From Rhodobiaceae bacterium (lineage in GTDB: Bacteria > Pseudomonadota > Alphaproteobacteria > Rhizobiales > NORP267), in assembly GCA_020441905.1 (NCBI GenBank), contig JAGRLG010000029.1, forward strand, positions 16,922 through 80,921: a stretch of 64,000 nucleotides of DNA. The letters are read 5' to 3'. Each line of letters starts with the position of its first letter. Positions within the stretch are counted from its first letter, which is position 1. Shown here in pieces: positions 16,226 through 46,425 of this stretch. Both the position numbers and the translations under genes were made by a program. Under the pieces are notes generated by a model that saw only the letters and a program-made list of their open reading frames with translations, was not told the origin of the DNA and searched no databases.

Positions 16226-16233
<8 letters not shown>
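14875..16233 (-). CDS. Alpha-oxoamine synthase (PLP-dependent acyl-(ACP/CoA) : amino acid C-acyltransferase, SPT/BioF/KBL family)
   Basis: 452 aa from ATG 16233. 'VDEAHSIGVLGGTGRGIGE' and the PLP-lysine motif 'GTLSKALASCGGYIAG' are present. There is an N-terminal extension of about 90 aa with the helix 'LSAAQKRALLEEMLREK'. The start overlaps the PKS stop by 8 nt. Confidence 0.85.
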
Positions 16234-23995
<7,762 letters not shown>

Positions 23996-24119: not shown

Positions 24120-25331
24120 TCACTTCGCCAGCAGTTGGCGATAGGTCAGCAGGTGCCGAGCCGTAACCTCGGGCCATGACAGGCCGGGCACGGCGGCGCG
24201 GCATCCTTCGGCGAGCCGGCGCCGCAAGTCCGGCTCGCGGCCATAGCGCGCCAGGGCGGCGGCGAAGGCCCGGTCGCCGTCCGCCAGCAGGCAATCCGCG
24301 CCCTCGGTGAGAAAGTCGCGCAACCCCGCCTCGCGCATGCCCAGAACCGGCACCCCGGCGCAGCGCGCCTCCAGCGCCGCGATGCCGAAGGATTCCAGCC
24401 GCGAGGGCAATAGGAAAAGGTCGGCGCGGGAGAGGGCGGCGCGGATTTCCTCGCGCCCGAGCCGGCCGAGGAACTCTGCGTCCGGTCCAAGGCCAAGCCT
24501 GCCCGCCTGTCTTTCCAGCGCGGCGCGCAGCGGCCCCTCGCCGATGATGCGCAGGCGCAGCCTCTGGCCCTGCGGCAGTTCCCGGCGGGCCTGGGCCACG
24601 GCTCGCAGCAGGGCCTGGGGCCGCTTGCGCGGATGAAGACGCATCACTGCCAGCAGCTCGATCGCCCCTTCTCCGCCGGCCCCGGCCCCGCCGGCATCGT
24701 TGCCCGCCCGCATGGCCCGCGCCGCGCCCCACCAGTCGGCATCGATGCCGTTGGGCAGGATTTCGACCGGTGCCGCGCCCAGCAGAGGGCGCAGCGAGCG
24801 GGCAACGACGCTGCTCACGGCGCTGTGGCGCACCGGCCAGCGGGCGCAGCCGAGCATCCGCCCCAGCGCCGCCGCCAGCGGAATCTGGACATGGCCGATC
24901 ATGGAGTGGAAGGTCGTCAGCACCGGCAGCCCCAGCCGCACCGCTTCGCGCGTCGCCGCATAGGCGAGCGGCGCATTGCCGAAGTGAACATGGACCAGAT
25001 CATAGCGGCCGGCGCGCAACTGCTCGCGCAGGCGCGCGTGAGCCGATTTCCGGTGCGGGCTGGCGAAGCACTCGAGAAAGAAGAAGAGATCGCGCGCGCT
25101 GTTGGCGTGCGGCGGCGGCGGGAAGCGGTAGCCGCCATCGGCGCGCCCCGCCGCGCACAGCCGCCGCACCACCACCCCTTCCACCTCGCCGGGGCCGGGC
25201 ACCGGCGTCAGCACTTCAAGATCCACGCCTTCCGCTTTGAGGTGCACGGTCAGGTCGCGCAGATGCAGCTCGATGCCGCCAAAGCGGGGCAGGTACCAGT
25301 CCGATACCAGGGCAACGCGCGGCGCCGTCAT
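24120..25331 (-). CDS. Glycosyltransferase family 4 (GT-B; PimB/MshA-like N-terminus)
   Basis: 403 aa. N-terminus 'VALVSDWYLPRFGGIELHLRDL' and C-terminus 'LLPSRLESFGIAALEARCAGVPVLGMREAG' (EX7E region). It ends 124 nt upstream of the PKS start. Confidence 0.8.
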   Translation of the reverse strand: MTAPRVALVSDWYLPRFGGIELHLRDLTVHLKAEGVDLEVLTPVPGPGEVEGVVVRRLCAAGRADGGYRFPPPPHANSARDLFFFLECFASPHRKSAHARLREQLRAGRYDLVHVHFGNAPLAYAATREAVRLGLPVLTTFHSMIGHVQIPLAAALGRMLGCARWPVRHSAVSSVVARSLRPLLGAAPVEILPNGIDADWWGAARAMRAGNDAGGAGAGGEGAIELLAVMRLHPRKRPQALLRAVAQARRELPQGQRLRLRIIGEGPLRAALERQAGRLGLGPDAEFLGRLGREEIRAALSRADLFLLPSRLESFGIAALEARCAGVPVLGMREAGLRDFLTEGADCLLADGDRAFAAALARYGREPDLRRRLAEGCRAAVPGLSWPEVTARHLLTYRQLLAK

Positions 25332-25361: not shown

Positions 25362-26333
25362 CTACCACCAGTCGGCAAAGGCATGGATCGCCACCCGGTC
25401 ATTATGGCCCGAAGCGTTGAGGCCGAAGGTCAGCGCCGCCAGCCTGGAGGTGTGCCGCGGGATCGGCAGGCCCGGCGCCGGCACCACCAGCCGCGGCACC
25501 TTGCGCCGCGCCAGATGCGCCGCCACCCACACATCGTCCACCCAGCGCACCTCGTCCGGCCAGCCGGCGTAATCATGCACCCCCTTGTCCAGCGCGCCGG
25601 GCGGGATCAGGTAGCCCCAGACGCCGAGCAGGATGTCGACCTCGGTGGGCTGCGCCACCGCGCTGCCCCAGACATGCTCGAAATGGCGCGGATCGACGCC
25701 CGGCTCCAGGCGCCAGCCGCGCCAGCCCAGGGCAGCCGCCGGAAAGCTGCGATGCGCCTCGACCAGGGTTTGCAGGAAGTCGTGCGGGTAGATCATGTCG
25801 TCATCGACCGCCACCACCAGCGCCTCCGGTTCGGCGAGAAGCGCCGGCAGCAGCTTGGTCGAGGGGCCGGTGTCGACGCAGCGCAGGATGTCGATGCCCT
25901 TGGGCAGGTCCGCCGGCAGCGCATAGGGCTTGCCGCTGCGCAGCGACTTTTCCGGCAGCGCCAAAATGATGCGGTCGGCGGCGCGGGTCTGTTCCCTGAG
26001 GCTGAGCAGGGTTGGAACCAGGGTGTCGATGCGCTCCGGGATCGTGGTCATCGAGACCACCAGGCGCTCGCCGCCGCGCCCGGCCTGGGGCAGCGCCAGG
26101 GAACGCCCCGCGCGCAGCCGCGCCGCGCGGCGATAATCGGCGGCGATGCGCAGGGCCGACAGCCGCCGGAAGCGGATAAACTGGCTGCGGATCTTGCGCC
26201 AGGCGATATCCCGCCGCGTCAATGCCCGGACTGCACCGCTATCCGCCGTCACGCCGCCTGGCCCCGCCCGCCGATCCCCACCCGCCGATTCATGTCGCCG
26301 ATCCCTCTGGTAAGAGGGCGCAAATGTGGACAA
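25362..26333 (-). CDS. Putative GT-A-fold glycosyltransferase (DDD motif)
   Basis: 323 aa. 'VVSMTTIPERIDTLVPTLLSLREQT' followed by 'VVAVDDDMIYPHDFL' looks like a nucleotide-sugar binding fold plus a DxD motif. A basic amphipathic N-terminus is present. Family assignment is tentative. Confidence 0.5.
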   Translation of the reverse strand: MSTFAPSYQRDRRHESAGGDRRAGPGGVTADSGAVRALTRRDIAWRKIRSQFIRFRRLSALRIAADYRRAARLRAGRSLALPQAGRGGERLVVSMTTIPERIDTLVPTLLSLREQTRAADRIILALPEKSLRSGKPYALPADLPKGIDILRCVDTGPSTKLLPALLAEPEALVVAVDDDMIYPHDFLQTLVEAHRSFPAAALGWRGWRLEPGVDPRHFEHVWGSAVAQPTEVDILLGVWGYLIPPGALDKGVHDYAGWPDEVRWVDDVWVAAHLARRKVPRLVVPAPGLPIPRHTSRLAALTFGLNASGHNDRVAIHAFADWW

Positions 26334-26405
26334 TATGTCGGGCGGCGTCTAGACCCGATGGCCGCGCTAAGCGCAGTCACCCTTGGTGAGTGGGGCACCC
26401 AGATC

Positions 26406-27020
26406 ATGGCCGACCTAGCCGGGCCGGAAACCTTGCGCAACCTCTACCGCCGCCTTCTCGACTCGGCGTCGCGCACCCTTGCCGCCGCCGGCATCCACCC
26501 CGACTGGCTGACCATGGCCTCGCTGCCACCGGCGGTCCTTGCCGGCATCGCCGCCGCCTTCGGCTCGTTCACGATCGCCGCCGTCCTGTTCGCCATCAGC
26601 GGCATCCTCGACCTGCTCGACGGCGCGCTGGCCCGCCACACCGGCCGCGCCACCCGTTTCGGCGCGCTGCTCGATTCAACTCTCGACCGCCTTGCCGATG
26701 CTGCCGTGCCCGCCGGCCTCGTCGTCTTTTATGCGCCGCATGGTGCGCTGGCCGCCCTTCCCGTGCTGACCATCATCGCCGGCTTCCTGATTTCCTATAT
26801 CCGCGCCCGCGCCGAAGGCCTCGACATCGCCCTGCCCCGGCTGTGGATGCGCCGCGAGGACCGTTTCCTGGCGATGACCGCCGGCTTGCTTCTGGCCCCG
26901 CTCGCCGCACCGGCCCTCGGCGTTCCGGCGCCCGTGCTGCTCGCGGTGATGGCCGCCCTTGCCGGACTGGGGTTTGTCGCCGCCTTCCAGGCCCTGCGCG
27001 CCGCGGCGAAGCGCAGCTGA
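26406..27020 (+). CDS. CDP-alcohol phosphatidyltransferase (candidate phosphatidylinositol-phosphate synthase)
   Basis: Signature D-x2-D-G-x2-A-R-x8-G-x3-D-x3-D is readable as 'DLLDGALARHTGRATRFGALLDSTLDRLAD'. About 204 aa with multiple TM helices. An alternative ATG lies at 26358. MIPS and PgpA are its neighbours. Confidence 0.8.
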   Translation: MADLAGPETLRNLYRRLLDSASRTLAAAGIHPDWLTMASLPPAVLAGIAAAFGSFTIAAVLFAISGILDLLDGALARHTGRATRFGALLDSTLDRLADAAVPAGLVVFYAPHGALAALPVLTIIAGFLISYIRARAEGLDIALPRLWMRREDRFLAMTAGLLLAPLAAPALGVPAPVLLAVMAALAGLGFVAAFQALRAAAKRS

Positions 27021-27029: not shown

Positions 27030-27557
27030 CTAGAAAGCCAGCGCCGCTAGATGCAGCGCGGCTATGGCATAGAGCGCCGCCAGGCCGTCATCCAGCATGA
27101 CGCCAAGGCCGCCGCCGACCCTGCGGTCGGCCAGCGAAACCGGCCATGGCTTGAGAATATCGAAGGCGCGAAAGAAGACGAAGGCCAGCGCCGATGCGCC
27201 AAGGCCCGGCAGGGCCGGCGGCGCCAGCACCACCACCAGCGCCATGCCGAAGATCTCGTCGATGACAATGGCGCCGTGGTCATGCACCCCCAGCGCCGCG
27301 CCGGCGCGCGACGCCGCCGCCACGCCGATGGCAAAGACCAGTGCCAGGGCGGGCAATGCCGCGGCCAGCGGCAATTGCGCCAGCGCCAGACCGAGCGCGA
27401 GGCCCGGCAGCGAACCGGCCGTTCCCGGCGCCAGCGGGCTGAGGCCGGTGCCGAGGCCGAGAGCGAGGAAATGCCACGGGCTGTCGATGAGGAAGCGCCA
27501 GCCGGGGCGCGCGCCCAAGATGGCTGCCTTTTCAGCGGGCGGGGAAACGGGTTTCAC
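27030..27557 (-). CDS. pgpA: Phosphatidylglycerophosphatase A family protein (candidate PIP phosphatase)
   Basis: 175 aa. 'WHFLALGLGTGLSPLAPGTAGSL' and 'IVIDEIFGM', 'FRAFDILKPWP' are the PgpA signatures. The GTG start lies 6 nt after the MIPS stop. Confidence 0.8.
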   Translation of the reverse strand: MKPVSPPAEKAAILGARPGWRFLIDSPWHFLALGLGTGLSPLAPGTAGSLPGLALGLALAQLPLAAALPALALVFAIGVAAASRAGAALGVHDHGAIVIDEIFGMALVVVLAPPALPGLGASALAFVFFRAFDILKPWPVSLADRRVGGGLGVMLDDGLAALYAIAALHLAALAF

Positions 27558-27563
27558 GCCGCC

Positions 27564-28646
27564 TCAATGGGTCACGAGGTCGTCGACGAATTCGCGGGTG
27601 CGCCGCTGCGCCTCGTGGTCGTCATACTGCACCGGCGGCGACTTCATGAAATAGCTCGACGGGCCTTCGAGGGCGCCGCCGATGCCGCGGTCGAGCGCCA
27701 GCCGCGCGCAACGGATGGCATCGATCACCACGCCGGCGGAATTGGGCGAGTCCCAGACCTCCAGCTTCATCTCCAGGTTGATCTGCGAGCCGCCGAATCC
27801 GGTGCCTTCGAGGCGGATCTGCGCCCATTTGCGGTCCTCCAGCCAGGGCACGTAGTCGCTGGGGCCGACATGGATGTTTCTTTCCTCGAGCGGAAAATCG
27901 ACCTGGCTGGTCACCGCCCGCGTCTTGGAGATCTTCTTCGACTTCAGGCGGTCGCGCTCCAGCATGTTGTGGAAATCCGAATTGCCGCCGAAATTGAGCT
28001 GGTAGGTGCGGTCGAGGCGGATGCCGCGCTGGCCCAGCAGCTGCGCCAGCACCCGATGCACAATGGTGGCGCCGACCTGGCTCTTGATGTCGTCGCCGAT
28101 GATCGGCAGGCCCGTCGCGGCAAAGCGCCCGGCCCAGGCCGGATCGGAGGCGATGAACACCGGAATGCAGTTGACCACGGCGCAGCCGGCCTTGAGCGCC
28201 TCCTCGACATAGAAGCGGGTCGCCGCTTCCGAGCCGACGGGCAGGTAGTTGATCAGGATCTCGGTGCCGGTGGCCTTGAGCACGTCGGTGACATCCACCG
28301 GCGGCGCCTCGGATTCCGGCACCATGTCCTTGAGATATTCGCCGATGCCATCCAGCGTCGGCCCTCGCAGCACCTTGACGCCGGTCTTTTCCACCTCGGC
28401 GAAGCTGCATGTATTGTTGGGGTCGGCGAAAATGGCCTCGGCGAGGTCGCGATCGACTTTGCCGGCATTGACATCGAAAGCCGAGCAGATCTCGACATCG
28501 CGCACGTGATAGCCGCCGAGCGAGACGTTCATCAGCCCCGGCGGCGGCGTATTGGCGTCGGCCTGGTCGTAGAACTTTATGCCCTGAACCAGCGACGAGG
28601 CGCAGTTTCCGACACCAACAATGCCAACTCGAATCTTGTCCGTCAC
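27564..28646 (-). CDS. ino1: myo-Inositol-1-phosphate synthase (inositol-3-phosphate synthase)
   Basis: '[22 protein letters not shown]', 'LPVGSE', '[11 protein letters not shown]', '[12 protein letters not shown]' and 'SKKISKT' match the bacterial/archaeal MIPS family of about 360 aa. I chose GTG 28646 (GGGGG SD 6 nt upstream); the track ORF starts at TTG 28664. Confidence 0.9.
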
Positions 28647-28825
28647 CGAAAGCCCCCATCGCAAGCAGTTTCAGGCTCAAAAGCCCATAGCAGTCATCTT
28701 CGCCAAGTTCCAGTGGCAGCGGCGCCGATGCCGCGGAAAGACCCCTTGCCGGCAACGGCGATCATTGTCTTGGCGCCGGATTGCCGCTAGGCCTTTTGCG
28801 ATCAGGAAGGAAACGAGCCAGCACC

Positions 28826-29884
28826 ATGCGCGCGCCCGCACCGATGCCCGATTGCCCTCGCCCGCCCGCCGCGCGCGCGCGCGCCGATGCCGGATGGCGC
28901 CGCGTTCCGCTGCGCCGGCTTCTCCTCGTCCTTGTCGCCATGGCCATCATTGCCGCCCTGCCCTTCGTGGACTGGGCAGGGCTGGGTATGGCGCTCGCCG
29001 CCGCCGATCCCTATTGGCTGGCCATGGCCGTCATTGCCAATCTTGCCGTTTTCCCGCTCTGGGTCTGGCAATGGCGGCTCCTGGCGCTGCCGGGGCGTGA
29101 CGTCGGCTGGCCGGTCATGGCCGAGATTGTCGCCCTGACGGCTGCCGCCAAGACCACCCTGTCCTCGATCGGCGGCGGCGCCTCGGCGGTGGCCCTACTG
29201 GTGGCGCGCGGCGAACTGACACTGATCGGCGCCACCTCATTGCTCGCCATGGACCAGCTTCTGGTCGGCATTGCCAAGCTGGCCGTCCTCGCCCTGGCGC
29301 TCTCCATTGCCCCGCTCCCCGCCCCCGTCTTCACCGCGGCGCTGGTCTTCGCCGCGCTGGTGGCCGCGTTGCTGGCCGCCCTCACCGTCCTTGCCTTCGG
29401 CCCGGCGCGGCTCGCCGGCATTGTGGCGCGCCGGCGCAGGCTTGGCGCCTGGCTTGGCAACATGCTGGGTCATGTTTCCGTCGGGCTTGCCACCATGCGC
29501 AGTCCGCAACGCGCCGCCCTGACCCTGGCGCTCGCGCTGGTCAAAAAATTCACCGAGGTCGCCGCCGCCCTTGCCATCCAGCTTGCCTGCGGCATCGCGC
29601 CTTCGCCCGCCGCCGCCATCCTGTCGGTGGCCGCCGTGAGCCTGACGACGGCGATACCGGTCATTCCCGGCAATATCGGCACCTATGCCGCCACCGTGTT
29701 TCTGGTCTACGAAGGCCTCGGCATCCCCGCCGCGCCGGCGCTGGCCGCCGGCCTGCTTCAGCACGGCGCCATGCTCATCCCCTCGCTCGCCATCGGCTAT
29801 GGCGCCGTGGCATTGTCGCGCCTTGGCGCAGGCGGCGCGGCGGCCGGCGAGGCGGCGCAAGAAACGGAGCAGGATCCGGCATGA
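28826..29884 (+). CDS. UPF0104 / lysyl-PG-synthase-TM-region family membrane protein (flippase-like)
   Basis: About 352 aa and polytopic. N-terminus 'RRLLLVLVAMAIIAALPFVDW..L..AL...DP.WLA.AV..NL' with 8 or more hydrophobic helices, typical of the MprF flippase-domain family. Its stop overlaps the lptB-like start (ATGA). Confidence 0.6.
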   Translation: MRAPAPMPDCPRPPAARARADAGWRRVPLRRLLLVLVAMAIIAALPFVDWAGLGMALAAADPYWLAMAVIANLAVFPLWVWQWRLLALPGRDVGWPVMAEIVALTAAAKTTLSSIGGGASAVALLVARGELTLIGATSLLAMDQLLVGIAKLAVLALALSIAPLPAPVFTAALVFAALVAALLAALTVLAFGPARLAGIVARRRRLGAWLGNMLGHVSVGLATMRSPQRAALTLALALVKKFTEVAAALAIQLACGIAPSPAAAILSVAAVSLTTAIPVIPGNIGTYAATVFLVYEGLGIPAAPALAAGLLQHGAMLIPSLAIGYGAVALSRLGAGGAAAGEAAQETEQDPA

Positions 29885-30663
29885 CCGCATCAGGGGCACC
29901 AGACGCGAAAATGCTCCAGGCCTCGGGCCTGGCCAAGGCCTATGGCGGCGGCGATGTCGTGGTCGATTTCAGCCTTCGCGTCGCGCGCGGCGAAACCGTC
30001 GCCCTGCTTGGCCCCAACGGCGCCGGCAAGACCACCGTTTTCAGCATGATAACCGGCGTCACGCGCCCCGATGCCGGCGCGGTGCGCATCGACGGCATCG
30101 ATGTCACCAAGATGCCGGTCTATGCCCGCGCCCGCCTCGGCCTCAGCTATCTGCCGCAGGAAACCTCGGTTTTCCGCGGCCTGTCGGTGGAGGACAATAT
30201 CCTGCTCTATCTCGAAAGCATCGAGCCGGATCGCCGCCGCCGCGCCCGCCGCCTGGAAGAACTGCTGGCCGAGGTCGGCCTCGCCGACATGCGCCGCCAG
30301 AGGGCCTCGCGCCTGTCCGGCGGCCAGCGGCGGCGCTGCGAAATCGCCCGCGCCCTCGCCGCCGACCCGCGCTACATCCTGCTTGACGAGCCTTTCGCCG
30401 GCATCGACCCTCTAGCCGTGAGCCACGTCCAGGCCACCATCCGCGACCTCAGCGCGCGCGGCCTCGGCGTTCTTGTCAGCGATCACAATGTGCGCGAGAC
30501 GCTGGCCATCGTCGACCGCGCCTATGTCATCGAATCGGGATACCTGCTGGCCCATGGCACGCCGGGCGAGATCATCGGCGACGAACAGGTGCGCCGCCTC
30601 TATCTCGGCAGCACCTTCGCCGCGCCGCCTTCGGGGGCCGCGCCGCCCGGCCCCACGGCCTGA
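29881..30663 (+). CDS. lptB: LptB-family ABC ATPase (paralog embedded in the lipid island)
   Basis: 'LLGPNGAGKTT.F.MI.G', 'LGLSYLPQE.S.FR.LSVEDN', 'LSGGQRRRCEIARALA..P.YILLDEPFAGIDP' and 'DHNVRETL' are LptB hallmarks. 260 aa. Confidence 0.8.
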   Translation: MTASGAPDAKMLQASGLAKAYGGGDVVVDFSLRVARGETVALLGPNGAGKTTVFSMITGVTRPDAGAVRIDGIDVTKMPVYARARLGLSYLPQETSVFRGLSVEDNILLYLESIEPDRRRRARRLEELLAEVGLADMRRQRASRLSGGQRRRCEIARALAADPRYILLDEPFAGIDPLAVSHVQATIRDLSARGLGVLVSDHNVRETLAIVDRAYVIESGYLLAHGTPGEIIGDEQVRRLYLGSTFAAPPSGAAPPGPTA

Positions 30664-30781
30664 ACGCGGTCCCGACGGGAACGAAACAGGGGAAACAGCC
30701 ATCGCCTCCTTCCAGACACTGCATGCCGGCGCGGCGCGCCGTCACCCTCCCGCCGGCATCCCGCGGCGGCCGGGGCGTGCC

Positions 30782-31945
30782 GTGCCGGGGCGCTATGTCG
30801 GCGGCCTCATCCGCGACATCGCCCGCATCACGCTTGGTGTCCTGGCCGGCATCGAGGCGATCTATCTTTCCGACAAGGTGATCACCCACCTCCTGCCGAC
30901 CACCCTCCAGAACCAGGCCGGATTTGCCGATCTGGCGCTGCTGGTGCTCTACGCGACGCCGGAAATCCTATTCATCGGCTTTCCGGTGGCGCTGCTGATC
31001 GCGGTCTATCTGGTTCTGCTGCGCCGCCGCGAGGCCAATGAGTTCGTCGTCTTCGCCGGTGTCGGCTACGGCACCGGCGCGCTGCTCGCCCTGGTCCTGG
31101 TCATCGGCCTCGCCGGCCAGGCGCTTTCCCTGGCTGCCACCGGCTATATCGAACCCCACGCCCTGCACCTGTTCGGCAAGACGGCGTTCGAAACCCGCTA
31201 CAAGGCGCTGCGTGAAGGCCGCCTCGCCGCCGGCAAGTTCTATGTCTTCGACAAATATGCCGTCTTCGCCCCCTATCGGCGCGGCAATGACGTGGTCGAC
31301 AACCTGTTCATCCATGCCCGCCTCGACGCCAACCGCTACCGCATCATGATCGCGGACCGCGCCACCTTGTTCGGCTCGCCGGAAATCCGCAATCTGGGGC
31401 TGATATTCGAGAATGCGTCGGTCCATGAATTCCACGAGAACCGCACCCTGGACCCCGGCCCAGCCGAATGTCAGAAATGCCGCAACGCCCGTCCGGCGGC
31501 CCCCTTCAACGTTCTCAGGATCAATCACCTCTACGGCGAGCTGCCCGCCGGCGACGGGCAGGAATTCGGCCCGCGCGGCCAGCGCCCGGCGGAACTGACC
31601 AGCCTCGAACTGCTGACCGGGCAAGACACCGGCGGCGGCGCCACGCGGGAAATGTCGGCTCGCGCCGTGCGCGCCCTCACCTGCCTGCTGGCGCCCCTTA
31701 TCGCCCTGCTGGCAGTGGCGCTGACCAGCCAGGCCACCATGTTCATTGCCCTGCCCGCCGCCTGCGCGCTGATCCTCGGCACCGGATTTTTCGGCGGCCA
31801 GGCCGCCGGCCTGCTGCCCCCCGCCGGCATGGCGGCCAATCTTGGCGCGGTGCTGGTGCTGGGGCTTGCCGCCGCCGCGGCCCTCATTTGGGCCGTGCTG
31901 CGCGTCCAGAACGGCTGCGTGCGCCCGCACGGGGTGCGGCTATGA
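30782..31945 (+). CDS. lptF: LptF-like (YjgP/YjgQ family) permease
   Basis: The in-frame GTG at 30782 gives 'MPGRYVGGLIRDIARITLGVLAG...', the family-typical N-terminal RY motif. This is followed by 3 TM helices, a periplasmic domain of about 170 aa and 3 C-terminal TM helices. Its stop overlaps the next start (ATGA). Confidence 0.7.
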   Translation: MPGRYVGGLIRDIARITLGVLAGIEAIYLSDKVITHLLPTTLQNQAGFADLALLVLYATPEILFIGFPVALLIAVYLVLLRRREANEFVVFAGVGYGTGALLALVLVIGLAGQALSLAATGYIEPHALHLFGKTAFETRYKALREGRLAAGKFYVFDKYAVFAPYRRGNDVVDNLFIHARLDANRYRIMIADRATLFGSPEIRNLGLIFENASVHEFHENRTLDPGPAECQKCRNARPAAPFNVLRINHLYGELPAGDGQEFGPRGQRPAELTSLELLTGQDTGGGATREMSARAVRALTCLLAPLIALLAVALTSQATMFIALPAACALILGTGFFGGQAAGLLPPAGMAANLGAVLVLGLAAAAALIWAVLRVQNGCVRPHGVRL

Positions 31946-33120
31946 CCGCGCCGCTGGCCCCGTTCGGCCGCGAGACCCGCTATGTTTCCCGGCTCTATCT
32001 GCAAAGGGTCTTCGTCGTCGCCGCCGCGACCATGGCGATCGTGCTCGCGCTCGACCTTGCCTCGAACATGACCTGGTTGTTGTCGGACCGCGCCGCAGCA
32101 TCGGGGCGGGACGGCTTTGCGCGCCTAGCCTATTATCTCGGCCTGCGCGCCGCCTACAACACGCCGGCCATCCTGCCCATCGCCGCCGTGGTCGGTGTCG
32201 TCTGGGCGGAGTTCGCCCTTGCCGCTTCCTACGAGCGCCTCATGATCTTCAATTCCGGGCGCTCGCCCCTGCGCTCGCTGGTTCCGGCGATCCTGGTCGG
32301 CCTCCTGCTCGGCTCGGCCCAGTTCGCCGCGCTGAGCTATGCCCAGCCCTTTGCCGTGGCGGCGCAGGCGCGATCCAATTTCCGCGATTACGGCCCGAGC
32401 TTCCACCCCGACAGCGTCACCGGGCGCAAATGGATCGCCATCGAGGACGCGCTGGTCAACGCCCGCATCGAATTCGGGCATCCGGTGACCCTGCGCGACA
32501 TGATCGTCTATGGCCTCGACCGCGACGGCCAACTCGAAATCGTCGTCAGCGCCGAACGAGCCGTTCCCGCCGCCGAACCCGGCATGTGGGCGCTTAGCTC
32601 TGGCTCATGGTGGGGCCGCCCCGCCTCGCCGGCACAGGGCGGCGCCGGCGCCGGCGGTGGCGCCGAGGCCGCTTTTGAAAACGCGGAGATCAAGCTGCCG
32701 CTGGATCCGCTCTGGGTCGCCAATTACGAGGTGCCGGCCCGATTCCTGCCGCAGAAGGTCATCCGCGCGCTGGGTTCCGGCGGCCCCGGAATTCCCGAGG
32801 CGTTCAGCTATCGCACCACCTATCAGACGCGGCTGGCCTCGCTGCTCTACCCCCTCGCCATGACCCTCCTCGGCGCCACCTTGTGCCTGCTCATGCTCGG
32901 CCCCAGGGTGCGGCCGATGGTATCGGTGAAGATCGGCCTCGCTGGCTATGGCGTGCACGTCGCTTCCAAGGTTCTGACCACCCTTGGCGAATATGGCTAT
33001 GTCACGCCCGTCGTGGCGGCCTGGGCGCTGCCGGTCGCCGTCGCCGGCGGCGCGCTGCTGGTGCTGGCCCGCCGCGAGCGCAAGGTTCGCCGCTCGCTCG
33101 CCCGCCAGGCGGCAGGCTAG
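31942..33120 (+). CDS. lptG: LptG-like (YjgP/YjgQ family) permease
   Basis: 'RYVSRLYLQRVFVVAAATMAIVLALDL', with the same 3 TM / periplasmic domain / 3 TM topology as its partner. 392 aa. Confidence 0.75.
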   Translation: MTAPLAPFGRETRYVSRLYLQRVFVVAAATMAIVLALDLASNMTWLLSDRAAASGRDGFARLAYYLGLRAAYNTPAILPIAAVVGVVWAEFALAASYERLMIFNSGRSPLRSLVPAILVGLLLGSAQFAALSYAQPFAVAAQARSNFRDYGPSFHPDSVTGRKWIAIEDALVNARIEFGHPVTLRDMIVYGLDRDGQLEIVVSAERAVPAAEPGMWALSSGSWWGRPASPAQGGAGAGGGAEAAFENAEIKLPLDPLWVANYEVPARFLPQKVIRALGSGGPGIPEAFSYRTTYQTRLASLLYPLAMTLLGATLCLLMLGPRVRPMVSVKIGLAGYGVHVASKVLTTLGEYGYVTPVVAAWALPVAVAGGALLVLARRERKVRRSLARQAAG

Positions 33121-33524
33121 AATTCTGCCGTCAGCTCTATTTCCGCCTCGCCCATCACCACGGTCTTGCCGGCGGCGGCCGCGGTCAGCCGCACCACCGC
33201 CCGGCGGGACGCCGGATCGGCCGCGACCACCCGCCCCGAAATCTCCACGCCCTCGCCGAAAAGGACCGGGCGCAGGAAGCGCGCCGCCAGGCGGGCGATG
33301 GCGCCGCAGCGCGGCCAGGCCTCCAGCGCGCGGGAAAACTGCCCCATCACCAGCATGCCGGGAACCGGCAGGCCGGCCATGCCGGCGCCGCGCGCCAGGG
33401 TTTCGTCGCGGTGCAGCGGATTGTCGTCGCCCGAGGCCGCCAGATAGGCGCCGACCGCATCGGCGCCGATGGCTTCGATGGCAAGCCCCGGCAGGCGCTG
33501 GCCGATCAGTTCCTGGCGGCTCAT
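33117..33524 (-). CDS. MaoC-like (R)-specific hydratase/dehydratase, catalytic hot-dog subunit (HadB-like)
   Basis: 135 aa. Hydratase-2 motif 'YLAASGDDNPLHRDETLA' ([YF]-x-x-[STG]-G-D-x-N-P-[LIV]-H). The start overlaps the upstream stop by 4 nt. Confidence 0.75.
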   Translation of the reverse strand: MSRQELIGQRLPGLAIEAIGADAVGAYLAASGDDNPLHRDETLARGAGMAGLPVPGMLVMGQFSRALEAWPRCGAIARLAARFLRPVLFGEGVEISGRVVAADPASRRAVVRLTAAAAGKTVVMGEAEIELTAEF

Positions 33525-33943
33525 GGGCGCGGCTCCTTGCCGCCGGCGAGAACGAAGCTGCCGCACACGCTGGCGACCCTGGCCCCGGCGCCATCGCGCA
33601 GATCGGCCCTCACCCGCGCCACCCCCCTGGCATCCGGCCCGGCAAGGCCGACATCCATGGCATAGGGCTGGCCGATGCGCAGGGGCGCGAAATATTCCAT
33701 TTCCTGGTCGAGATGCACCGGCACCTTGCCGCCGCCGCCCAGCGCCACCAGCAGCGCCGATTTGACCGCCGGCTCCGCCAGCCAGCAGATCGGAAAGGTG
33801 ACCGGCACTTCGCCCCGGCCAGCGCCGCCAGCCCCGCCCAATGCCAGCGCGGCGCGAAAGCGGGCCACCCGCTCCGCCCCGGCCACGACATCGAAACTGC
33901 CGATGCGGCGAAATCCTGGCGCGGGCGCGGCGGGCGTCGCCAT
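33521..33943 (-). CDS. Hot-dog fold protein without hydratase motif (MaoC N-terminal-like, HadA/HadC-like partner)
   Basis: 140 aa from ATG 33943 ('MATPAAPAPGFRRIGSFDVV...'). It has no D-x-N-P-x-H motif. It sits directly between the KAS gene and the catalytic hot-dog gene. Confidence 0.55.
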   Translation of the reverse strand: MATPAAPAPGFRRIGSFDVVAGAERVARFRAALALGGAGGAGRGEVPVTFPICWLAEPAVKSALLVALGGGGKVPVHLDQEMEYFAPLRIGQPYAMDVGLAGPDARGVARVRADLRDGAGARVASVCGSFVLAGGKEPRP

Positions 33944-33948
33944 GCCCG

Positions 33949-35157
33949 TCACTCCGGCCGGGACACGATCAGCGCGGCATTGATGCCGCCAAAGGCGAAG
34001 GAATTGGACAGCGCGGCTTCGAAGCGGTGGGCCTGCGGACCCGCGGTCGGCAGGTTGAGCGGGCATTTGGCGTCCGGCGCCTTGAAATTGATGTGTGCGG
34101 GCACGACCTGGGCCTCCAGGGCGCGAACCGTGATCGCCAGTTCCAGCGCCCCGGCGGCGCCAAGGGTATGGCCGATGACCGGCTTGGAGGACGACACCGG
34201 CAGCTCGCCCACCCCCTCGCCGAAAACCTGGCGCAGGGCGGCCGCCTCGTTGATATCGTTGAGCACGGTGCCGGTGCCGTGGGCATTGACATAGCCGATC
34301 GCGGCGGGCGCGAGGCCGGCATCGGCCAGCGCCGCGCTCATGGCGTTGGCGGCGCCGTCCACGTCGGGCTGGATGATGTCGCGGGCATCGCTGGTGGTGC
34401 CGTAGCCGGCCAGCCGCGCCAGCACCTTGGCGCCGCGCGCCAGCGCCAGATCCTCGGCCTCGAGGACGAAAACCCCCGCCCCCTCGCCGATGACGATGCC
34501 GGTGCGCCCGGCGGAAAAGGGCCGGCAGACATCGGGCGAAAGCACCCGCATCATTTCCCAGGCGCGCAGGGTCGCCGCCGTGATGCAGGCCTCGCTGCCG
34601 CCGACGACGGCGCGGTCGATGGCGCCCGAGCGGATCAGCATGGCGGCGATACCGATCGACTGGCTGGCCGAGGAACAGGCGCTGGTAACGGAAAAACAGG
34701 GGCCGGTGATGCGGTGGGTGATGCTGATATGGGAGGTCGCGGCGCTCGGGATCAGCTTGGGCACGCTCAGCGGATCGACCCGTTTCACGCCGCTGTAGAA
34801 ATCGAAGCAGCCGTCGTCAAGCGTATTCATGCCGCCGATGCCGGTGCCGATGATGGCCGCCGTCCGCGGCCCGGCGATCTCGTCCGCGCCCAGGCCCGAT
34901 TGCGCAATGGCCTCGGCGGCGGCGACATGGGCAAACTGGGTAAAGCGGTCGCAGCGCCGCATGACATCGGCCGGCGCGTGGGAGGCGGGATCGAAATCCT
35001 TCACGCTCGCCGCTACCCGCACGCGCAGGCTTTGCCCGCGCGTGATGTCCAGCGGCCCGACCGCCGACACCCCGTCGCGCGCCGCCAGCCACAGGGCATC
35101 GACCCCGATGCCGGCGGCGCTGATGGCGCCCATGCCTGTAATGGCGACCTTTCTCAT
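33949..35157 (-). CDS. Beta-ketoacyl-ACP synthase I/II family (FabF/FabB-like)
   Basis: 402 aa. Cys-His-His triad context: 'SACSSASQSIG', 'NAHGTGTVLND', 'SSKPVIGHTLGAAGALE'. A GAGGA SD is present. Confidence 0.9.
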   Translation of the reverse strand: MRKVAITGMGAISAAGIGVDALWLAARDGVSAVGPLDITRGQSLRVRVAASVKDFDPASHAPADVMRRCDRFTQFAHVAAAEAIAQSGLGADEIAGPRTAAIIGTGIGGMNTLDDGCFDFYSGVKRVDPLSVPKLIPSAATSHISITHRITGPCFSVTSACSSASQSIGIAAMLIRSGAIDRAVVGGSEACITAATLRAWEMMRVLSPDVCRPFSAGRTGIVIGEGAGVFVLEAEDLALARGAKVLARLAGYGTTSDARDIIQPDVDGAANAMSAALADAGLAPAAIGYVNAHGTGTVLNDINEAAALRQVFGEGVGELPVSSSKPVIGHTLGAAGALELAITVRALEAQVVPAHINFKAPDAKCPLNLPTAGPQAHRFEAALSNSFAFGGINAALIVSRPE

Positions 35158-35170
35158 CGGGAGGATGTCC

Positions 35171-35491
35171 TCACCCGCCCGACGTCGGCGCCGCCGGCTC
35201 GCTCTGCATCGAGGCGACGATGACGCTGATCAACTCGGACAGGTTGCGCGCCTCGGAAAGATCGGAACTCATGGGAATGTAGGTGTCGAATTCCTCTTCC
35301 AGGCCCATCAGCACCATCACGACCTCGATCGATTCAAGGCCCAGCGTTTGCAGCGTCGCCTCGGGCGCGATCTTGTCCCGCTCGACCTTTCCCTCTTCGA
35401 CGATCACCTTGATGATCCGCTCGATCATGTCCGGATCGTCGAGTTGCGGCCATGTCGTCGGCGCCGGGCCGCGTGTGTCCTCATCCGTCAT
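35171..35491 (-). CDS. Dedicated acyl carrier protein
   Basis: 106 aa from ATG 35491 (GGGAG SD). Phosphopantetheine site 'LQTLGLESIEVVMVLMGLEEEF'. It is longer than AcpP, with N- and C-terminal extensions. Confidence 0.8.
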   Translation of the reverse strand: MTDEDTRGPAPTTWPQLDDPDMIERIIKVIVEEGKVERDKIAPEATLQTLGLESIEVVMVLMGLEEEFDTYIPMSSDLSEARNLSELISVIVASMQSEPAAPTSGG

Positions 35492-36671
35492 TGTCGTCTC
35501 CCTCGCCTGCCGCGGCATCAGCTTCCAGCACCTTGTCATAGAGGCGCAGGGTGCGCACGCGCTTGAAGTTGAATTGCTCCAGTATTTTCAGCAATGCCTG
35601 ATTGTTTTCCAGCACCCAGCCCGCTTCCAGCCAGTCGGTTTCATAGTGGGCGCTGCGGGCGATCATCTCGTCGATCATGGTCATGGCGATGGCGGCGCCG
35701 CCGACGCTGTGGCGCAGGTCGAAAACCACGCCGAGCAGGATGATGCGCCCGGTGCGGAACCTGTGGGTGAACATGCGATAGCCGAGCTTGAGCCAGCCCA
35801 GCGGCGAGGGATCGGCGCCAAGATCGCCGGTGGCCTCGAACAGGTTGGGCAGCACCAAGGCGACGCCGACCGGGCGGCCCGCCATTTCGACGATGACACC
35901 GGCATCGGCGGGAACGAAGGGCTTCAGGTCCTTCGAAATGCCCTCCAGATCCTCTTTTTGCAGCGGCACGAAGCCCCAGTTGTCCTGCCAGGCGTCGTTA
36001 TAGACCGCGCGCATGATTTCGACGTCGCGGGCCAGGTTCTTCAGATCGAGCGCGCGCACGACCAGGTCGGGGCGCCGGCGCTGCAGCGCCAGGCGGACGC
36101 GCCGCGCTTCCAGCTCTGCCTGGGCGCTGTCGAGGCGCCAGTAATGCAGGTCGCGCATCTTGGCATAGCCGCAGGCCTCGACATGGCCCTCCAGATAGGC
36201 CGGGTGCCAGGGCACCATGATCAGCGCCGGTTCCTCGCGCCCTTCGACCAGCAGGCCCGCCTCCTCGTTCATCGACAGCAGGCAGGGTCCGAAAACGCGG
36301 CCGAAGCCGCGATCGGCGATCCAGTCCTCGGCGGTTTCGATCAGCGCCCGCACCACCTCCAGCTCGTCAATGGCATCGAGGCAGCCGAACATGCCGGCGC
36401 CCTCCAGGGCGTCGCCGGGGCCGCTGGCGCGGATCTGGGCGTGGTCGATCTGCGCCGAAATGCGCCCCACCGCGGCGCCATCCTTGCGGGCGATCCAGTA
36501 TTGCGCCTCGCCATGCTTGAAGAACGGCGCCTTGGCGGGATCGAGCAGGCCCCGGCGCTCCATGGTCATCGGCGCGGTGTAGCCGGCAAGGCCGCGGTAG
36601 AGCCGGGGCGGCAGGGCGATGAACTCCTTCACCGCCGCCTTGCTGTCGGCGCGTTCGATGGTCACCCTCAT
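35481..36671 (-). CDS. Large GNAT-fold acyltransferase (~396 aa; candidate N-acyltransferase)
   Basis: The in-frame ATG at 36671 overlaps the PAP2 stop (ATGA). 'MRVTIERADSKAAVKEFIALPPRLY...' has a two-lobed GNAT-like organisation, with the acyl-CoA/ACP-binding-type segment 'RIILLGVVFDLRHSVGGAAIAMTMIDEMI'. The track ORF 35481..37544 is an in-frame fusion artefact with the antisense of the PAP2 gene. Confidence 0.55.
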   Translation of the reverse strand: MRVTIERADSKAAVKEFIALPPRLYRGLAGYTAPMTMERRGLLDPAKAPFFKHGEAQYWIARKDGAAVGRISAQIDHAQIRASGPGDALEGAGMFGCLDAIDELEVVRALIETAEDWIADRGFGRVFGPCLLSMNEEAGLLVEGREEPALIMVPWHPAYLEGHVEACGYAKMRDLHYWRLDSAQAELEARRVRLALQRRRPDLVVRALDLKNLARDVEIMRAVYNDAWQDNWGFVPLQKEDLEGISKDLKPFVPADAGVIVEMAGRPVGVALVLPNLFEATGDLGADPSPLGWLKLGYRMFTHRFRTGRIILLGVVFDLRHSVGGAAIAMTMIDEMIARSAHYETDWLEAGWVLENNQALLKILEQFNFKRVRTLRLYDKVLEADAAAGEGDDNDG

Positions 36672-37573
36672 GCCGTCACCGCCTTTGTGAGCCGGCGCGC
36701 CCGCAGCCGCGCCAGAACGAAATCGACCGCCAGCACGATGGCAATTCCGAGCAGCCCGTCGACCAGCCAGTGATGGTCGAGATAGACGCTGGCGGCGAGC
36801 ATCCACAGCACATAGGCAAGCAGCAGCGCCCTTATGCCCCAATTGGTGCCGCGCCACGCCGTCACCAGCATGGCGGTGGGAAAGGCCAGATGCAGCGACG
36901 GCAGGGCGCCGAAGACATTGGGGGAGCGCGAATAGAAGTCGTGGAAATAGCTGATTGCGAGCTGGGCATCGACCCGCGCCAGCGCCGCCGCGTCGGGCAG
37001 CGCATTGATGTCGATGGCGCAGCCGTGGCTTCGCACATACCAGGGCGGCGCCGCCGGCAGCCACAGCCAGATGACGAAAGCGACGGCATGGCTTAGCGCC
37101 AGCACCCAGATGAAGCGGCTCGCCCGCGCCGGGTTGAGGAAATAGAGCGCCAGGCCATAGATGATGGCGACCATCCAGAACACCGTATAGGGCAGGGCGA
37201 AGACCAGGTCGGCGGCGGCGCTGTGGTGAAGCGTGAAATAGTCCGCCAGGGTGGTGTCGGGCCCCAGGCCGGCAAGGCGCAGTTCCACGGCGCGCAATTC
37301 GCAGCCCAGGACCCGTTCCGGGGTGACGAAGAAGGGCCGCAGGTAGCGGATCGCCTCGTAGCCGAGCCCGATGCCCACCCCCGGGAGGCAGGCGATCAGC
37401 AGGCCCTTCGTCTTTTCGGTGCCGGCGCCGAGGGCGACGATGATGGCGACGATGACGACATGCTCGACGCGCAGGTCGCCCAGCGCGGCAAAACCGGCGA
37501 TGAATGCCAGCGGCGCCAGCGGCAACAGCCAGAAATCGCCCCACAGGCCACGCAGATGGCGGACAACGAACAT
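36668..37573 (-). CDS. PAP2_3-type membrane protein (inositol-phosphorylceramide synthase / AUR1-like phosphotransferase)
   Basis: 301 aa, about 7 TM helices. PAP2 C2/C3-type motifs 'FGALPSLHLAFP' and 'SVYLDHHWLVDGLLG' occur in the arrangement I associate with the IPC-synthase-like PAP2 subfamily rather than soluble phosphatases. Confidence 0.6.
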   Translation of the reverse strand: MFVVRHLRGLWGDFWLLPLAPLAFIAGFAALGDLRVEHVVIVAIIVALGAGTEKTKGLLIACLPGVGIGLGYEAIRYLRPFFVTPERVLGCELRAVELRLAGLGPDTTLADYFTLHHSAAADLVFALPYTVFWMVAIIYGLALYFLNPARASRFIWVLALSHAVAFVIWLWLPAAPPWYVRSHGCAIDINALPDAAALARVDAQLAISYFHDFYSRSPNVFGALPSLHLAFPTAMLVTAWRGTNWGIRALLLAYVLWMLAASVYLDHHWLVDGLLGIAIVLAVDFVLARLRARRLTKAVTA

Positions 37574-37776: not shown

Positions 37777-38640
37777 ATGGCAACAGTGTCGGCAGCATCT
37801 GGCCGCGGCAAGAGCGGCGACCCGGCTTCGGGGAAGCCGCGCCACGTCCTGATAACCGGGGCCACCGGCGGCCTCGGGCAGGCTCTGGCCGCCCATTACG
37901 CCGCGCCCGGCCGCGTGCTGTCGCTGACCGGGCGCGACGCCGCGCGCCTGTCCGCGATCGCCGACACCTGCGCCGCGCGCGGCGCGCATGTCGTCTCCCG
38001 CGCCCTCGACATCACCGACGCCGAAGCCCTGGGCGGCTGGATCGTCGCCCGCGACGAGGAAGACCCCATCGACCTGCTGATCGCCAATGCCGGCATCGGC
38101 GGCGCGGCCGTGGTCCCGCCTCCGGGCGGCGAAAGCGGCGAATTGGCGCGCCGGATCCTCGCCGTCAACACCATCGGCGCCATCAACACCGTGACCCCGG
38201 CCCTGCCGCGCATGATCGCCCGCCGGCGCGGGCATATCGCCATCGTCGGCTCGATATCCGGATCCATCGGCATGGCCCAGTCGCCGGTCTATTGCGCCTC
38301 CAAGGGCGCGGTACAGATCTATGCCGACGGCCTGCGCCGCCTCGTCAGGCGCCACGGCCTGCGCGTCACCTGCGTGCTGCCGGGTTTCATCGACACGCCG
38401 ATGAGCCGCTCGCTCGACATGCCCCGCCCCTGGTGCTGGCCGGCGGAGCGGGCCGCCCGGCGCATCGCCGCCGACATCGCGCGCGGCGCCAGCAGGAGCA
38501 TCTTTCCCTGGCAGTTGCGCGCCGGCATAGGCCTTCAGAACTACCTGCCCGCGGCCCTCACCGACTTCATTCTGGAGATCGGCGCGCGCGGCGGCGGCTG
38601 GACCAATCCCGAACCGGACGAAGACGGCGGGACGGACTAG
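37777..38640 (+). CDS. Classical short-chain dehydrogenase/reductase (candidate 3-keto reductase)
   Basis: 'HVLITGATGGLGQALA' (TGxxxGxG), 'NAGIG' and the catalytic 'YCASKGAV' (YxxxK). It is transcribed divergently from the PAP2-GNAT-ACP-KAS operon. Confidence 0.85.
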   Translation: MATVSAASGRGKSGDPASGKPRHVLITGATGGLGQALAAHYAAPGRVLSLTGRDAARLSAIADTCAARGAHVVSRALDITDAEALGGWIVARDEEDPIDLLIANAGIGGAAVVPPPGGESGELARRILAVNTIGAINTVTPALPRMIARRRGHIAIVGSISGSIGMAQSPVYCASKGAVQIYADGLRRLVRRHGLRVTCVLPGFIDTPMSRSLDMPRPWCWPAERAARRIAADIARGASRSIFPWQLRAGIGLQNYLPAALTDFILEIGARGGGWTNPEPDEDGGTD

Positions 38641-38759: not shown

Positions 38760-38835
38760 CTAGTGTCCTTATTGAATCCGAAGTTCGTTCCGAGCCTGCC
38801 GCACAGTGCGACGAACTTCGGATTCAGGACACTAG
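38760..38835. repeat. Palindromic intergenic element, copy B (inverted orientation, diverged)
   Basis: CTAGTGTCCTTATTGAATCCGAAGTTCGT...loop...ACGAACTTCGGATTCAGGACACTAG. The loop contains GAGCCTGCCGCA, the reverse complement of the copy A loop core. The last 4 nt overlap the stop of the DUF4833-like gene. Confidence 0.8.
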
Positions 38836-46197: not shown

Positions 46198-46211
46198 CAT
46201 CGCGACTGGCC

Positions 46212-46233
46212 GATGTATGGAATTCCACACATC
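46212..46233. promoter_or_regulatory. Candidate upstream activator sequence (22-bp near-perfect palindrome)
   Basis: GATGTATGGAATTCCACACATC, with 2 mismatches from a perfect dyad. Its centre lies about 90 bp upstream of the -24 element of the dctP promoter. Confidence 0.35.
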
Positions 46234-46307
46234 TGGCAAGCCGCCCCGTCCCGGTGGAAGAGATTAAAATTTTATAAACAAACGCTTTTCTTGCGCAGTC
46301 AACGGAC

Positions 46308-46323: not shown

Positions 46324-46425
46324 ACCATGAGGTCAGGTTGACGCCATCTTGGGCGCATCGACTTGTATCCGACGGTTCGCAATGCTTGCGCCGTTTCAGT
46401 TGCACCTATCGGGAGGACTGCTCGC

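Follow-up and report, generated by a model that had tools for sequence, protein, structure and literature searches.

The path by which bacterial sphingolipids pass through the inner membrane to the outer membrane has yet to be established. In this report, we examined a 64,000-nucleotide stretch of DNA from a Rhodobiaceae bacterium (contig JAGRLG010000029.1; hereafter "the window") and found that positions 28826-33120 hold an operon of four genes, all on the forward strand, for a PF03706 membrane protein, an LptB-type ATP-binding cassette (ABC) ATPase (LptB2) and two LptF/LptG-family permeases (LptF2 and LptG2). With a probability of about 0.7, we conclude that this operon encodes the inner-membrane part of a dedicated export route, one reserved for the outer-membrane lipid of the island in which it lies. 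The island spans ~9-43 kb of the window and, judged from its gene content, is a sphingolipid island. The conclusion draws on protein family, predicted fold, conserved genomic context and a precedent in Caulobacter. An initial annotation of this DNA had proposed a dedicated flip-and-extract route parallel to that of lipopolysaccharide (LPS), and both comparative genomics and the work on Caulobacter LptF2/G2 support that idea.

The operon opens with the PF03706 gene (the family is also known as LPG_synthase_TM, MprF-flippase-domain or PplT; 28826-29884, 352 aa) and continues with lptB2 (29881-30663, 260 aa), lptF2 (30782-31945, 387 aa) and lptG2 (31942-33120, 392 aa). ATGA stop/start overlaps join the first gene to the second (29881-29884) and the third to the fourth (31942-31945). 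The lptF2 gene starts at a GTG codon at 30782, which yields the N-terminus MPGRY; independent gene callers chose the same start on identical metagenome contigs. The initial annotation had read these junctions in the same way, as an LptB-family ATPase starting in the stop codon of a UPF0104/MprF-flippase-domain protein, followed by an LptF-like gene and an overlapping LptG-like gene. Profile searches bear out each of its family assignments (TIGR04406 at 317.9 bits for LptB2, PF03706 at 81.1 bits for the first protein and PF03739 for both permeases).

The two permeases are, according to a structural model of LptG2 and the sequence of LptF2, true members of the LptF/LptG fold that stand far from the housekeeping proteins. 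They cover ~350 of the 353 positions of the PF03739 profile, at 93.1 bits (LptF2) and 107 bits (LptG2) versus a gathering score of 27.9. The best NCBIfam match is LptF for the one and LptG for the other, at scores under the respective equivalog cut-offs (TIGR04407, 81.1 bits versus 230; TIGR04408, 70.1 bits versus 240). Single-sequence searches of the Protein Data Bank (PDB) with LptF2 and LptG2 matched no solved LptF or LptG; the LptG2 family profile alone reached an LptG there (E = 2e-7). An AlphaFold2 model of LptG2, built with 25 homologs, has a pLDDT of 90.5 and a pTM of 0.86. It comprises transmembrane helices (TM) 1-3, a short coupling helix, a beta-jellyroll at residues ~159-251 on the periplasmic side, and TM4-6. 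Foldseek returned as its best matches the LptG chains 6mjp_G and 6mit_G (TM-scores of 0.70/0.76 over ~380 columns, at 14-16% identity), and the beta-sheet domain of the model also matches LptC. The coupling-helix glutamate, the residue in contact with LptB, is invariant across the LptG2 family (E98). In LptF2, which is known from alignment alone, the coupling-helix glutamate (in the motif NEF) is conserved among orthologs, with aspartate in two sequences. Given this fold and the coupling glutamates, the pair therefore appears equipped to dock an LptB dimer and to pass a lipid to a periplasmic jellyroll bridge.

A separate feature of LptF2 is a CxxC motif (C230 and C233; window positions 31469-31480) between TM3 and TM4, in the predicted periplasmic stretch that corresponds to the jellyroll in LptG2. 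The motif is kept in islands with a polyketide synthase (PKS), namely L007 and L021, and in those of the Hoeflea/Roseibium type, and it is absent from the Rhodobacteraceae type; these numbers designate loci in other genomes that carry related islands.

LptB2 clears the 240-bit cut-off of the LptB equivalog model TIGR04406, falls under that of the narrower NF008144 model (273 bits versus 381) and aligns over its full length with the solved LptB of K. pneumoniae (263 bits). It retains the Walker A and B motifs, the signature motif, the switch histidine and the groove residues equivalent to F90/R91; the segments concerned read GPNGAGKTT, LSGGQRRR, LLDEPFAG, DHNVRETL (with the switch histidine), VFRGLSV and VRRLYLGSTF, the last being the C-terminal segment of LptB. 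In Alphaproteobacteria, as the initial annotation had supposed, the housekeeping lptB normally lies with lptC, lptA and rpoN: a canonical control from Bosea (P0090) stands in the context lptC-lptA-lptB-rpoN-hpf-ptsN. The window gene has no such context anywhere in the 64 kb, and in the related islands examined lptB2 never sits with lptA, lptC or rpoN. Its best matches (64-71% identity, ~247-253 aa) rank above canonical Hyphomicrobiales LptB proteins (59-61%, ~292 aa). Four top LptB-like matches had their context looked up (P0017, P0041, P0051 and P0028; 64-68% identity), and all four lie in sphingolipid islands. A neighbour-joining tree places the island-linked LptB2 proteins outside the canonical clade, which is tight. 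Substitutions scarcely seen, or not seen at all, among the canonical LptB sequences compared unite them: I127L and F158Y in 14 of 14, G81S in 12 of 14, and loss of Y47 in 14 of 14. Tree position, shared substitutions and island contexts together argue for LptB2 as a dedicated ATPase lineage that co-evolved with LptF2/G2. The LptB match table contained no second LptB assignable to a known island contig.

The arrangement recurs in other organisms. LptB2, LptF2 and LptG2 are encoded in 12 of the 12 related islands examined, which come from Alphaproteobacterial genomes and metagenome contigs. Seven divergent loci (L008, L010, L011, L012, L013, L014 and L016), from Rhodobacteraceae and Pararhodobacter metagenome-assembled genomes (MAGs), a Rhodobiaceae MAG and others, keep the full order PF03706-lptB2-lptF2-lptG2. 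Identities to the window proteins in these loci are 52-63% for LptB2, 32-52% for LptF2, 37-49% for LptG2 and 42-53% for the PF03706 protein. An order that persists in seven loci at 32-63% protein identity is more than chance. All four genes are also present in L007/L019 (one organism, on a 1.07-Mb contig) and in L024, split into two divergent units; in L007/L019, the PKS gene, an alpha-oxoamine synthase (AOS) gene, lptF2 and lptG2 run one way, and the PF03706 gene and lptB2 the other. More distant islands with LptB2, LptF2 and LptG2 are those of a Hoeflea sp. (L020) and Roseibium sp. M-1 (L023), together with L021 and L024. In these four, the lpt genes lie beside an Spt gene, a GNAT-like gene, genes for an acyl carrier protein (ACP), a ketosynthase (KS) and dehydratases, and a short-chain dehydrogenase/reductase (SDR) gene. 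Several of the distant islands also carry a sphingolipid delta-4-desaturase-type gene (Lipid_DES), an FA_hydroxylase gene and a Wzm/Wzt/Wzt trio.

These permeases are rare. The window LptG2 has 12 detectable relatives in a word-indexed set of 5.8 billion proteins, and 5 of 185,579 species genomes contain its motifs; three of the five belong to the Rhodobacteraceae, where the motif was not otherwise found. A hidden-Markov-model scan of 1.84 billion representative sequences with the LptG2 family profile gave 100 matches at E<=1e-30 and 348 at E<=1e-10. The distribution is patchy and falls always inside a sphingolipid island; it takes in genomes and MAGs that bear the labels Rhodobacteraceae (Roseovarius and Pararhodobacter among them), Rhodobiaceae, Hoeflea and Roseibium. 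Word-indexed searches with the window LptG2 (12 proteins) and the Hoeflea LptG2 (13 proteins) did not reach each other's subfamily, nor any Caulobacter protein. A tblastn search of 72,556 plasmids with LptG2 found no match, and there is therefore no evidence that the island is plasmid-borne. Because the permeases are divergent, rare and patchily distributed, because their setting is constantly a sphingolipid island and because LptB2 carries derived residues, we infer that this Lpt set is probably the second in its genome, additional to a housekeeping set.

One of the same-order loci, L013 (JBFWQA010000001.1, a 1.35-Mb contig), bears the label of a Flavobacteriaceae MAG. The locus has 65% G+C, its gene order is that of the Rhodobiaceae MAG locus L014 and its identities to the window are similar to those of L014. 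The taxonomic label or the binning of L013 is probably wrong.

The remainder of an Lpt machine was sought in the window. Pfam searches of the predicted genes, which left out four small open reading frames (ORFs) at the far 3' end (58564-63999), detected no LptA, LptC, LptD or RpoN. Searches with phmmer took LptC and LptA from Bosea as queries and covered all six-frame ORFs, both of the window and of 11 loci; they also gave no match, at a low sensitivity that a very divergent LptC2 could escape. The initial annotation's statement that lptA, lptC and rpoN are not nearby agrees with these results. Its description of the set as self-contained holds for the inner-membrane step and goes no further, as the island has no paralogs of LptC, LptA, LptD or LptE.

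The first gene of the operon encodes a candidate flippase for an inositol lipid, a role suggested by its family membership together with its gene linkage. The PF03706 match extends over profile positions 5-302 of 302, and its score compares with a gathering cut-off of 33.4; TIGR00374 gives 26.4 bits, under its cut-off of 43.2. A single-sequence AlphaFold2 prediction, made with no alignment, was poor (pLDDT 52.7). A general role as lipid translocases of prokaryotes has been proposed for stand-alone PF03706 domains, and lipid translocation in MprF is the sole demonstrated function of the domain, as far as the abstract of that preprint relates (bioRxiv 10.1101/2022.03.11.483950). The substrate of the window protein could be either a phosphatidylinositol (PI) donor or the finished inositol-phosphoceramide (IPC).

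What the PF03706 gene tracks is the inositol/PAP2_3 module of the islands rather than LptB2F2G2 in itself. Ten loci (the window and nine others) have it immediately ahead of lptB2. The junction is an overlap of 1-4 nt or a gap of <=7 nt in the seven loci with gene calls, the window included. A PAP2_3 gene is found in the same island in nine of the ten (for the L019 organism, in L007); the tenth locus, L012, ends before the point at which PAP2_3 would lie, but it has a gene for myo-inositol-1-phosphate synthase (MIPS). Conversely, the PF03706 gene is missing from three islands, L020, L021 and L023, that lack MIPS and PAP2_3 within 10 kb. In L021, which has no PF03706 gene, an MsbA-like ABC half-transporter (ABC_membrane and ABC_tran domains, 575 aa) is encoded at positions 1860-3587 of the reverse strand; it may be an alternative flippase for the same step.

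The substrate of this machinery is predicted from the genes on either side. The initial annotation had held that both neighbouring operons make lipids, and the Pfam and NCBIfam families uphold that much; that the predicted lipid is a sphingolipid had escaped it. To the left, on the reverse strand, the gene for a single-module, fully reducing PKS (16226-23995, 2589 aa; domains KS-AT-DH-MT-ER-KR-ACP) is followed, with an overlap of 8 nt, by that for an AOS of the BioF/Kbl/Spt family (14875-16233; 452 aa from the likely true start at 16233). The pair looks like an SgaAB-type route to a long-chain base, to which a C-methyltransferase domain is added here. In its Rhodobacteraceae versions, the island lacks a PKS and has a plain Spt-like gene of 409 aa.

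Inositol would be supplied by the genes next to the operon. The MIPS gene (27564-28646, reverse strand; PF01658), whose orthologs in eight loci are 65-76% identical, adjoins a gene for a PgpA-family phosphatase (27030-27557, reverse strand; PF04608) and one for a CDP-alcohol phosphatidyltransferase that resembles phosphatidylinositol phosphate (PIP) synthases (26358-27020, forward strand; PF01066). The phosphatidyltransferase scores 121.7 bits with NF040950 and 105.4 bits with NF045883 PIPSynth (cut-off 170), both under the cut-offs. The phosphatase is predicted to convert PIP to PI, by analogy with Bacteroides BT1525 (PMC8791184).

To the right of lptG2, an operon on the reverse strand (33117-37573) encodes a MaoC dehydratase, a hotdog-like protein of 140 aa, a FabF-like KS, an ACP, a 396-aa GNAT-like protein and a PAP2_3 protein. 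Known bacterial ceramide synthases are GNAT-like, and the 396-aa protein fits such an enzyme; its own GNAT match is weak, and its L021 ortholog passes the Pfam threshold. The PAP2_3 protein (36668-37573) resembles IPC synthases, its single NCBIfam match being NF052609, phosphoinositol dihydroceramide synthase, at 127.6 bits, under a cut-off of 480. The operon is conserved in L007, L008, L010, L011, L016 and L024. L013/L014 yielded only the 396-aa gene and PAP2_3, and in L020 and L023 all of its genes except PAP2_3 are present. An SDR, predicted to be the 3-keto reductase, follows at 37777-38640 on the forward strand.

Genes for glycosylation are also at hand, namely a GT4 glycosyltransferase gene (24120-25331, reverse strand), with orthologs in related loci, and a gene for a 296-aa protein with a weak GT2-like match (25362-26252, reverse strand). 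Further left on the reverse strand are genes for Wzm (14028-14894) and for two consecutive Wzt ATPases (12725-14044 and 11421-12728), both bearing a carbohydrate-binding Wzt_C domain; the same trio occurs in L008, L010, L011, L023 and L024. That this trio accompanies the island even in distant relatives hints at a glycan joined to the lipid, or at the glycolipid itself as the substrate. From this gene content, the product is most likely an IPC with a PKS-derived, possibly methyl-branched base, and it is probably glycosylated. A cluster for phosphatidylinositol mannoside (PIM)-like lipids was considered, given the CDP-alcohol transferase and the GT4 enzyme. It was set aside because every island has an Spt/AOS gene and a GNAT-like gene, and the inositol-bearing islands also have an IPC-synthase-like gene.

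We propose that the genes of the island would act as follows. The PKS and the AOS would make a sphingoid base, which the GNAT-type, ceramide-synthase-like enzyme would N-acylate with a chain from the private ACP/KS/dehydratase set, while the SDR would reduce the 3-keto group. MIPS, the PIP-synthase-like enzyme and PgpA would make PI, from which the PAP2_3 enzyme would transfer inositol phosphate onto ceramide; GT4/GT2 enzymes may add sugars. The PF03706 protein would move the inositol lipid, whether PI donor or finished IPC, across the inner membrane. A complex of composition (LptB2)2-LptF2-LptG2 would then use ATP to pull the lipid from the periplasmic leaflet and push it into the beta-jellyrolls of LptF2/G2 and, presumably, onward into a periplasmic Lpt bridge. 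Since the island contains no LptC, LptA or LptDE paralogs, this bridge would probably be that of the housekeeping LptC/LptA/LptDE.

Several observations weigh against this proposal. The IPC-synthase, PIP-synthase and Spt assignments all fall under the NCBIfam equivalog cut-offs, which makes these proteins family-level relatives and the lipid a predicted one. The PF03706 protein had no match in the PDB by sequence, and its family profile reached nothing meaningful there. No LptC-like partner was found by phmmer, a search of low sensitivity, though canonical LptB2FG needs LptC. The GT4 enzymes are cytoplasmic, so that glycosylation, headgroup transfer and flipping could follow one another in more than one order, and Wzm/Wzt, conserved in many islands, represents an alternative or additional translocation step. 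It is at the flipping step that a different explanation deserves most attention. Tight and conserved coupling of the PF03706 gene to lptB2, seen in the seven loci with gene calls, hints at a physical partnership, and the protein might belong to the ABC complex as an accessory or regulatory subunit, perhaps in place of the TM helix of LptC. Alternatively, it might serve biosynthesis only, by delivering PI to a periplasm-facing PAP2_3 enzyme; the gene follows the inositol/PAP2_3 module and is absent from the Hoeflea, Roseibium and L021 islands. The exported lipid would then be flipped by Wzm/Wzt, a system that the window shares with five of the related islands examined, by MsbA, a relative of which stands in L021 instead of the PF03706 gene, or spontaneously, given that ceramide itself flips fast. 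Yet nothing ties the PF03706 protein to LptC, and lipid translocation in MprF is the only function shown for its domain, in the account given by the abstract cited above. We consider it unlikely, if well worth bearing in mind, that the protein is not the flippase of the exported lipid.

Returning to the proposed dedicated route, two further explanations concern its cargo and its very existence as a second system. The operon could encode the sole LptB2FG of the organism, serving as the housekeeping extractor for LPS, or for sphingolipid in an LPS-free, Sphingomonas-like cell, and merely located inside a lipid island. LptB2 does still pass the LptB equivalog model, and the sphingolipid-linked LptFG homologs of S. 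wittichii are reported to be sole copies (bioRxiv 10.64898/2026.04.12.717747). A housekeeping identity is improbable, however, for permeases that reach 81 and 70 bits where the cut-offs are 230 and 240 and that find no solved LptF/G by sequence. Neither the 5 species genomes with the motif, with 3 in a family otherwise devoid of it, nor the 348 representatives matched by the family profile are what it would predict. The same is true of a patchy distribution confined to sphingolipid islands and of LptB2 proteins that share derived residues and never stand beside lptA, lptC or rpoN. We judge it very improbable that the cargo is instead a modified LPS, with the right-hand operon serving AcpXL-type very-long-chain-fatty-acid synthesis or lipid A remodelling and LptB2F2G2 adapted to the resulting lipid A. 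The ACP/KS/MaoC/hotdog set does resemble the rhizobial acpXL-fabZXL-fabF cluster, PAP2 enzymes include lipid A phosphatases, and Wzm/Wzt with glycosyltransferases is typical of O-antigen loci. But the single NCBIfam match of the PAP2_3 protein is to phosphoinositol dihydroceramide synthase, and the 396-aa protein is GNAT-like and returned no match to a lipid A acyltransferase family. Further, an Spt/AOS gene is present in every island and MIPS in many, and a gene of the sphingolipid delta-4-desaturase type occurs in relatives, as does one for a fatty-acid hydroxylase.

The idea that additional LptF and LptG proteins export sphingolipids is already published and is not new, and the LptF2/G2 concept being in the literature lowers the novelty of the present finding. 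In Caulobacter, a 2024 study labelled CC_1168, CC_1156 and CC_1155 as LptC2, LptF2 and LptG2 and named the Wzx-type CC_1166 as a possible flippase (PMC11324152). Uchendu, Isom & Klein (bioRxiv 10.64898/2026.04.12.717747) have reported that Caulobacter lptF2, lptG2 and lptC2 can be deleted only with anionic sphingolipid synthesis blocked, and that LptF2 and LptG2 bind one another as well as the housekeeping LptB, the only LptB there. The same authors found no lptB duplicate and stated that the downstream and flipping steps are unknown. The window resembles C. crescentus (LptF2/LptG2, CCNA_01214/01213; LptC2, CCNA_01226) in having an extra permease pair inside a sphingolipid locus, a predicted LptFG fold with beta-jellyrolls, and a proposed role in extracting an anionic sphingolipid toward the outer membrane. 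The likeness to CCNA_01213/4 drawn here is one of locus, fold and role. The two systems differ in other respects. The Caulobacter permeases use the housekeeping LptB, whereas the window island and every related island examined have an lptB2 of their own. The flippase candidate is of the Wzx type (CC_1166, IPR002797) in Caulobacter and of the PF03706/PplT type, translationally coupled to lptB2, in the window. Caulobacter has an LptC2, whereas none was found in the window. Finally, the lipid is ceramide phosphoglycerate in Caulobacter and a predicted IPC with a PKS-made base here. The novelty lies in the dedicated LptB paralog clade, in the tight coupling of a PplT-type flippase candidate and in the connection with an inositol headgroup.

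Compared with canonical LptB2FG(C) (E. coli, Enterobacter, Vibrio and Acinetobacter; 6MIT, 6MJP and 8FRL), the window proteins share the ABC architecture. They differ in that LptG2 is only 14-16% identical to solved LptG and both permeases fail the equivalog models, in a genomic context that is neither lptCAB-rpoN nor lptFG, and in the lack of LptC. The substrates would also differ, the window lipid being predicted to have two acyl or alkyl chains and one phosphate, and the canonical one being a hexa-acylated, bis-phosphorylated lipid A. With the MprF flippase domain and the PplT proteins (E. coli YbhN; Hauser et al., bioRxiv 10.1101/2022.03.11.483950), the window PF03706 protein shares its Pfam family, and, like the PplT proteins, it is a stand-alone multi-helix membrane protein encoded with lipid-synthesis genes. 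Unlike MprF, it is not fused to a synthase; its gene is coupled to those of an Lpt-type extractor and linked to inositol lipid genes. Such an association is not mentioned in the abstract of that preprint.

The biosynthetic genes have their own precedents. The Bacteroides thetaiotaomicron operon BT1522-1526 (PMC8791184) follows the same logic, with MIPS, a CDP-alcohol phosphatidyltransferase, a PGP-phosphatase-like protein and a PAP2-type IPC synthase. It has a GtrA-like protein and neither Lpt paralogs nor a PF03706 gene, and the window inositol enzymes score under the Bacteroides-derived equivalog cut-offs. Pseudomonas fluorescens MYb115 has been shown to make sphingoid bases with a PKS-AOS pair, SgaAB, which, like that of the window, consists of a monomodular PKS followed directly by an AOS (PMC12134224). 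Unlike SgaAB, the window PKS has a methyltransferase domain, and the pair lies inside a full island for ceramide, headgroup and export; the text of that report makes no mention of Lpt or flippase genes. For the sphingolipid locus of E. coli UTI89, we found no locus tags in the literature.

These comparisons suggest several uses for the island. If some Alphaproteobacteria reserve a private LptB for a sphingolipid extractor, the specificity between Lpt ATPase and permeases becomes testable with natural paralogs. The PF03706/PplT gene, locked to lptB2 wherever the inositol module is present, is a testable flippase candidate, and its cargo would possibly be the first physiological substrate for stand-alone PplT proteins. 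IPC-type lipids, known from Bacteroidetes and eukaryotes, are probably made by Alphaproteobacteria too, here from a PKS-derived base. Roseibium sp. M-1 and the Hoeflea spp. with related islands are possible experimental handles, if isolates exist. A bolder proposal, which we put forward as speculative and rather doubtful, is that the island specifies a complete second pathway for an outer-membrane glycolipid built on ceramide and not on lipid A. In such a pathway, an IPC anchor would be flipped by PplT, decorated with glycan through Wzm/Wzt/Wzt and carried toward the cell surface by an Lpt extractor with its own ATPase. If that were true, the lipid would be a bacterial counterpart of the eukaryotic glycosyl inositol phosphorylceramides (GIPCs), a "sphingo-LPS" in LPS-bearing Alphaproteobacteria. 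The private LptB2 would separate its traffic from LPS export both energetically and regulatorily, and the first physiological substrate of PplT outside MprF would be defined.

A few minor features complete the description. Between the MIPS gene and the operon, which diverge, lies an intergenic region (28647-28825) that we presume to be a shared promoter region; the divergent layout of MIPS and PF03706 genes is kept in L008, L010, L012 and L019. A promoter scan found no sigma-70 consensus match ahead of the operon, and alignment of the lptB2-lptF2 spacer across loci revealed no conserved element. A terminator-like hairpin on the forward strand (33108-33132), identified by pattern match only, lies over the lptG2 stop codon, where this gene and the MaoC gene converge; it has a 9-bp stem with 6 GC pairs and a weak T tail. 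In the related island L007, an MptA_B-family gene (17571-19124, reverse strand), which is GT-C mannosyltransferase-like, suggests that polyprenol-linked sugars extend the headgroup in the periplasm, as they do in mycobacterial lipomannan. Beyond the SDR gene of the window are genes for a DUF4833 protein (38832-39440, reverse strand), conserved in L007, L013, L014 and L021, and, at the island edge, for a GMC oxidoreductase (39595-41064, forward strand) and ManC (GDP-mannose pyrophosphorylase/phosphomannose isomerase; 41303-42715, reverse strand), the latter a likely source of sugar donor. The flanks of the island are housekeeping in character. On one side (3377-8319) they comprise nadC-nadB-nadA, an NrtR-type regulator and a methyl-accepting chemotaxis protein, and on the other (43032-57526) a histidine kinase, a sigma-54-dependent response regulator, a TRAP DctPQM transporter and a Liv-type ABC system.

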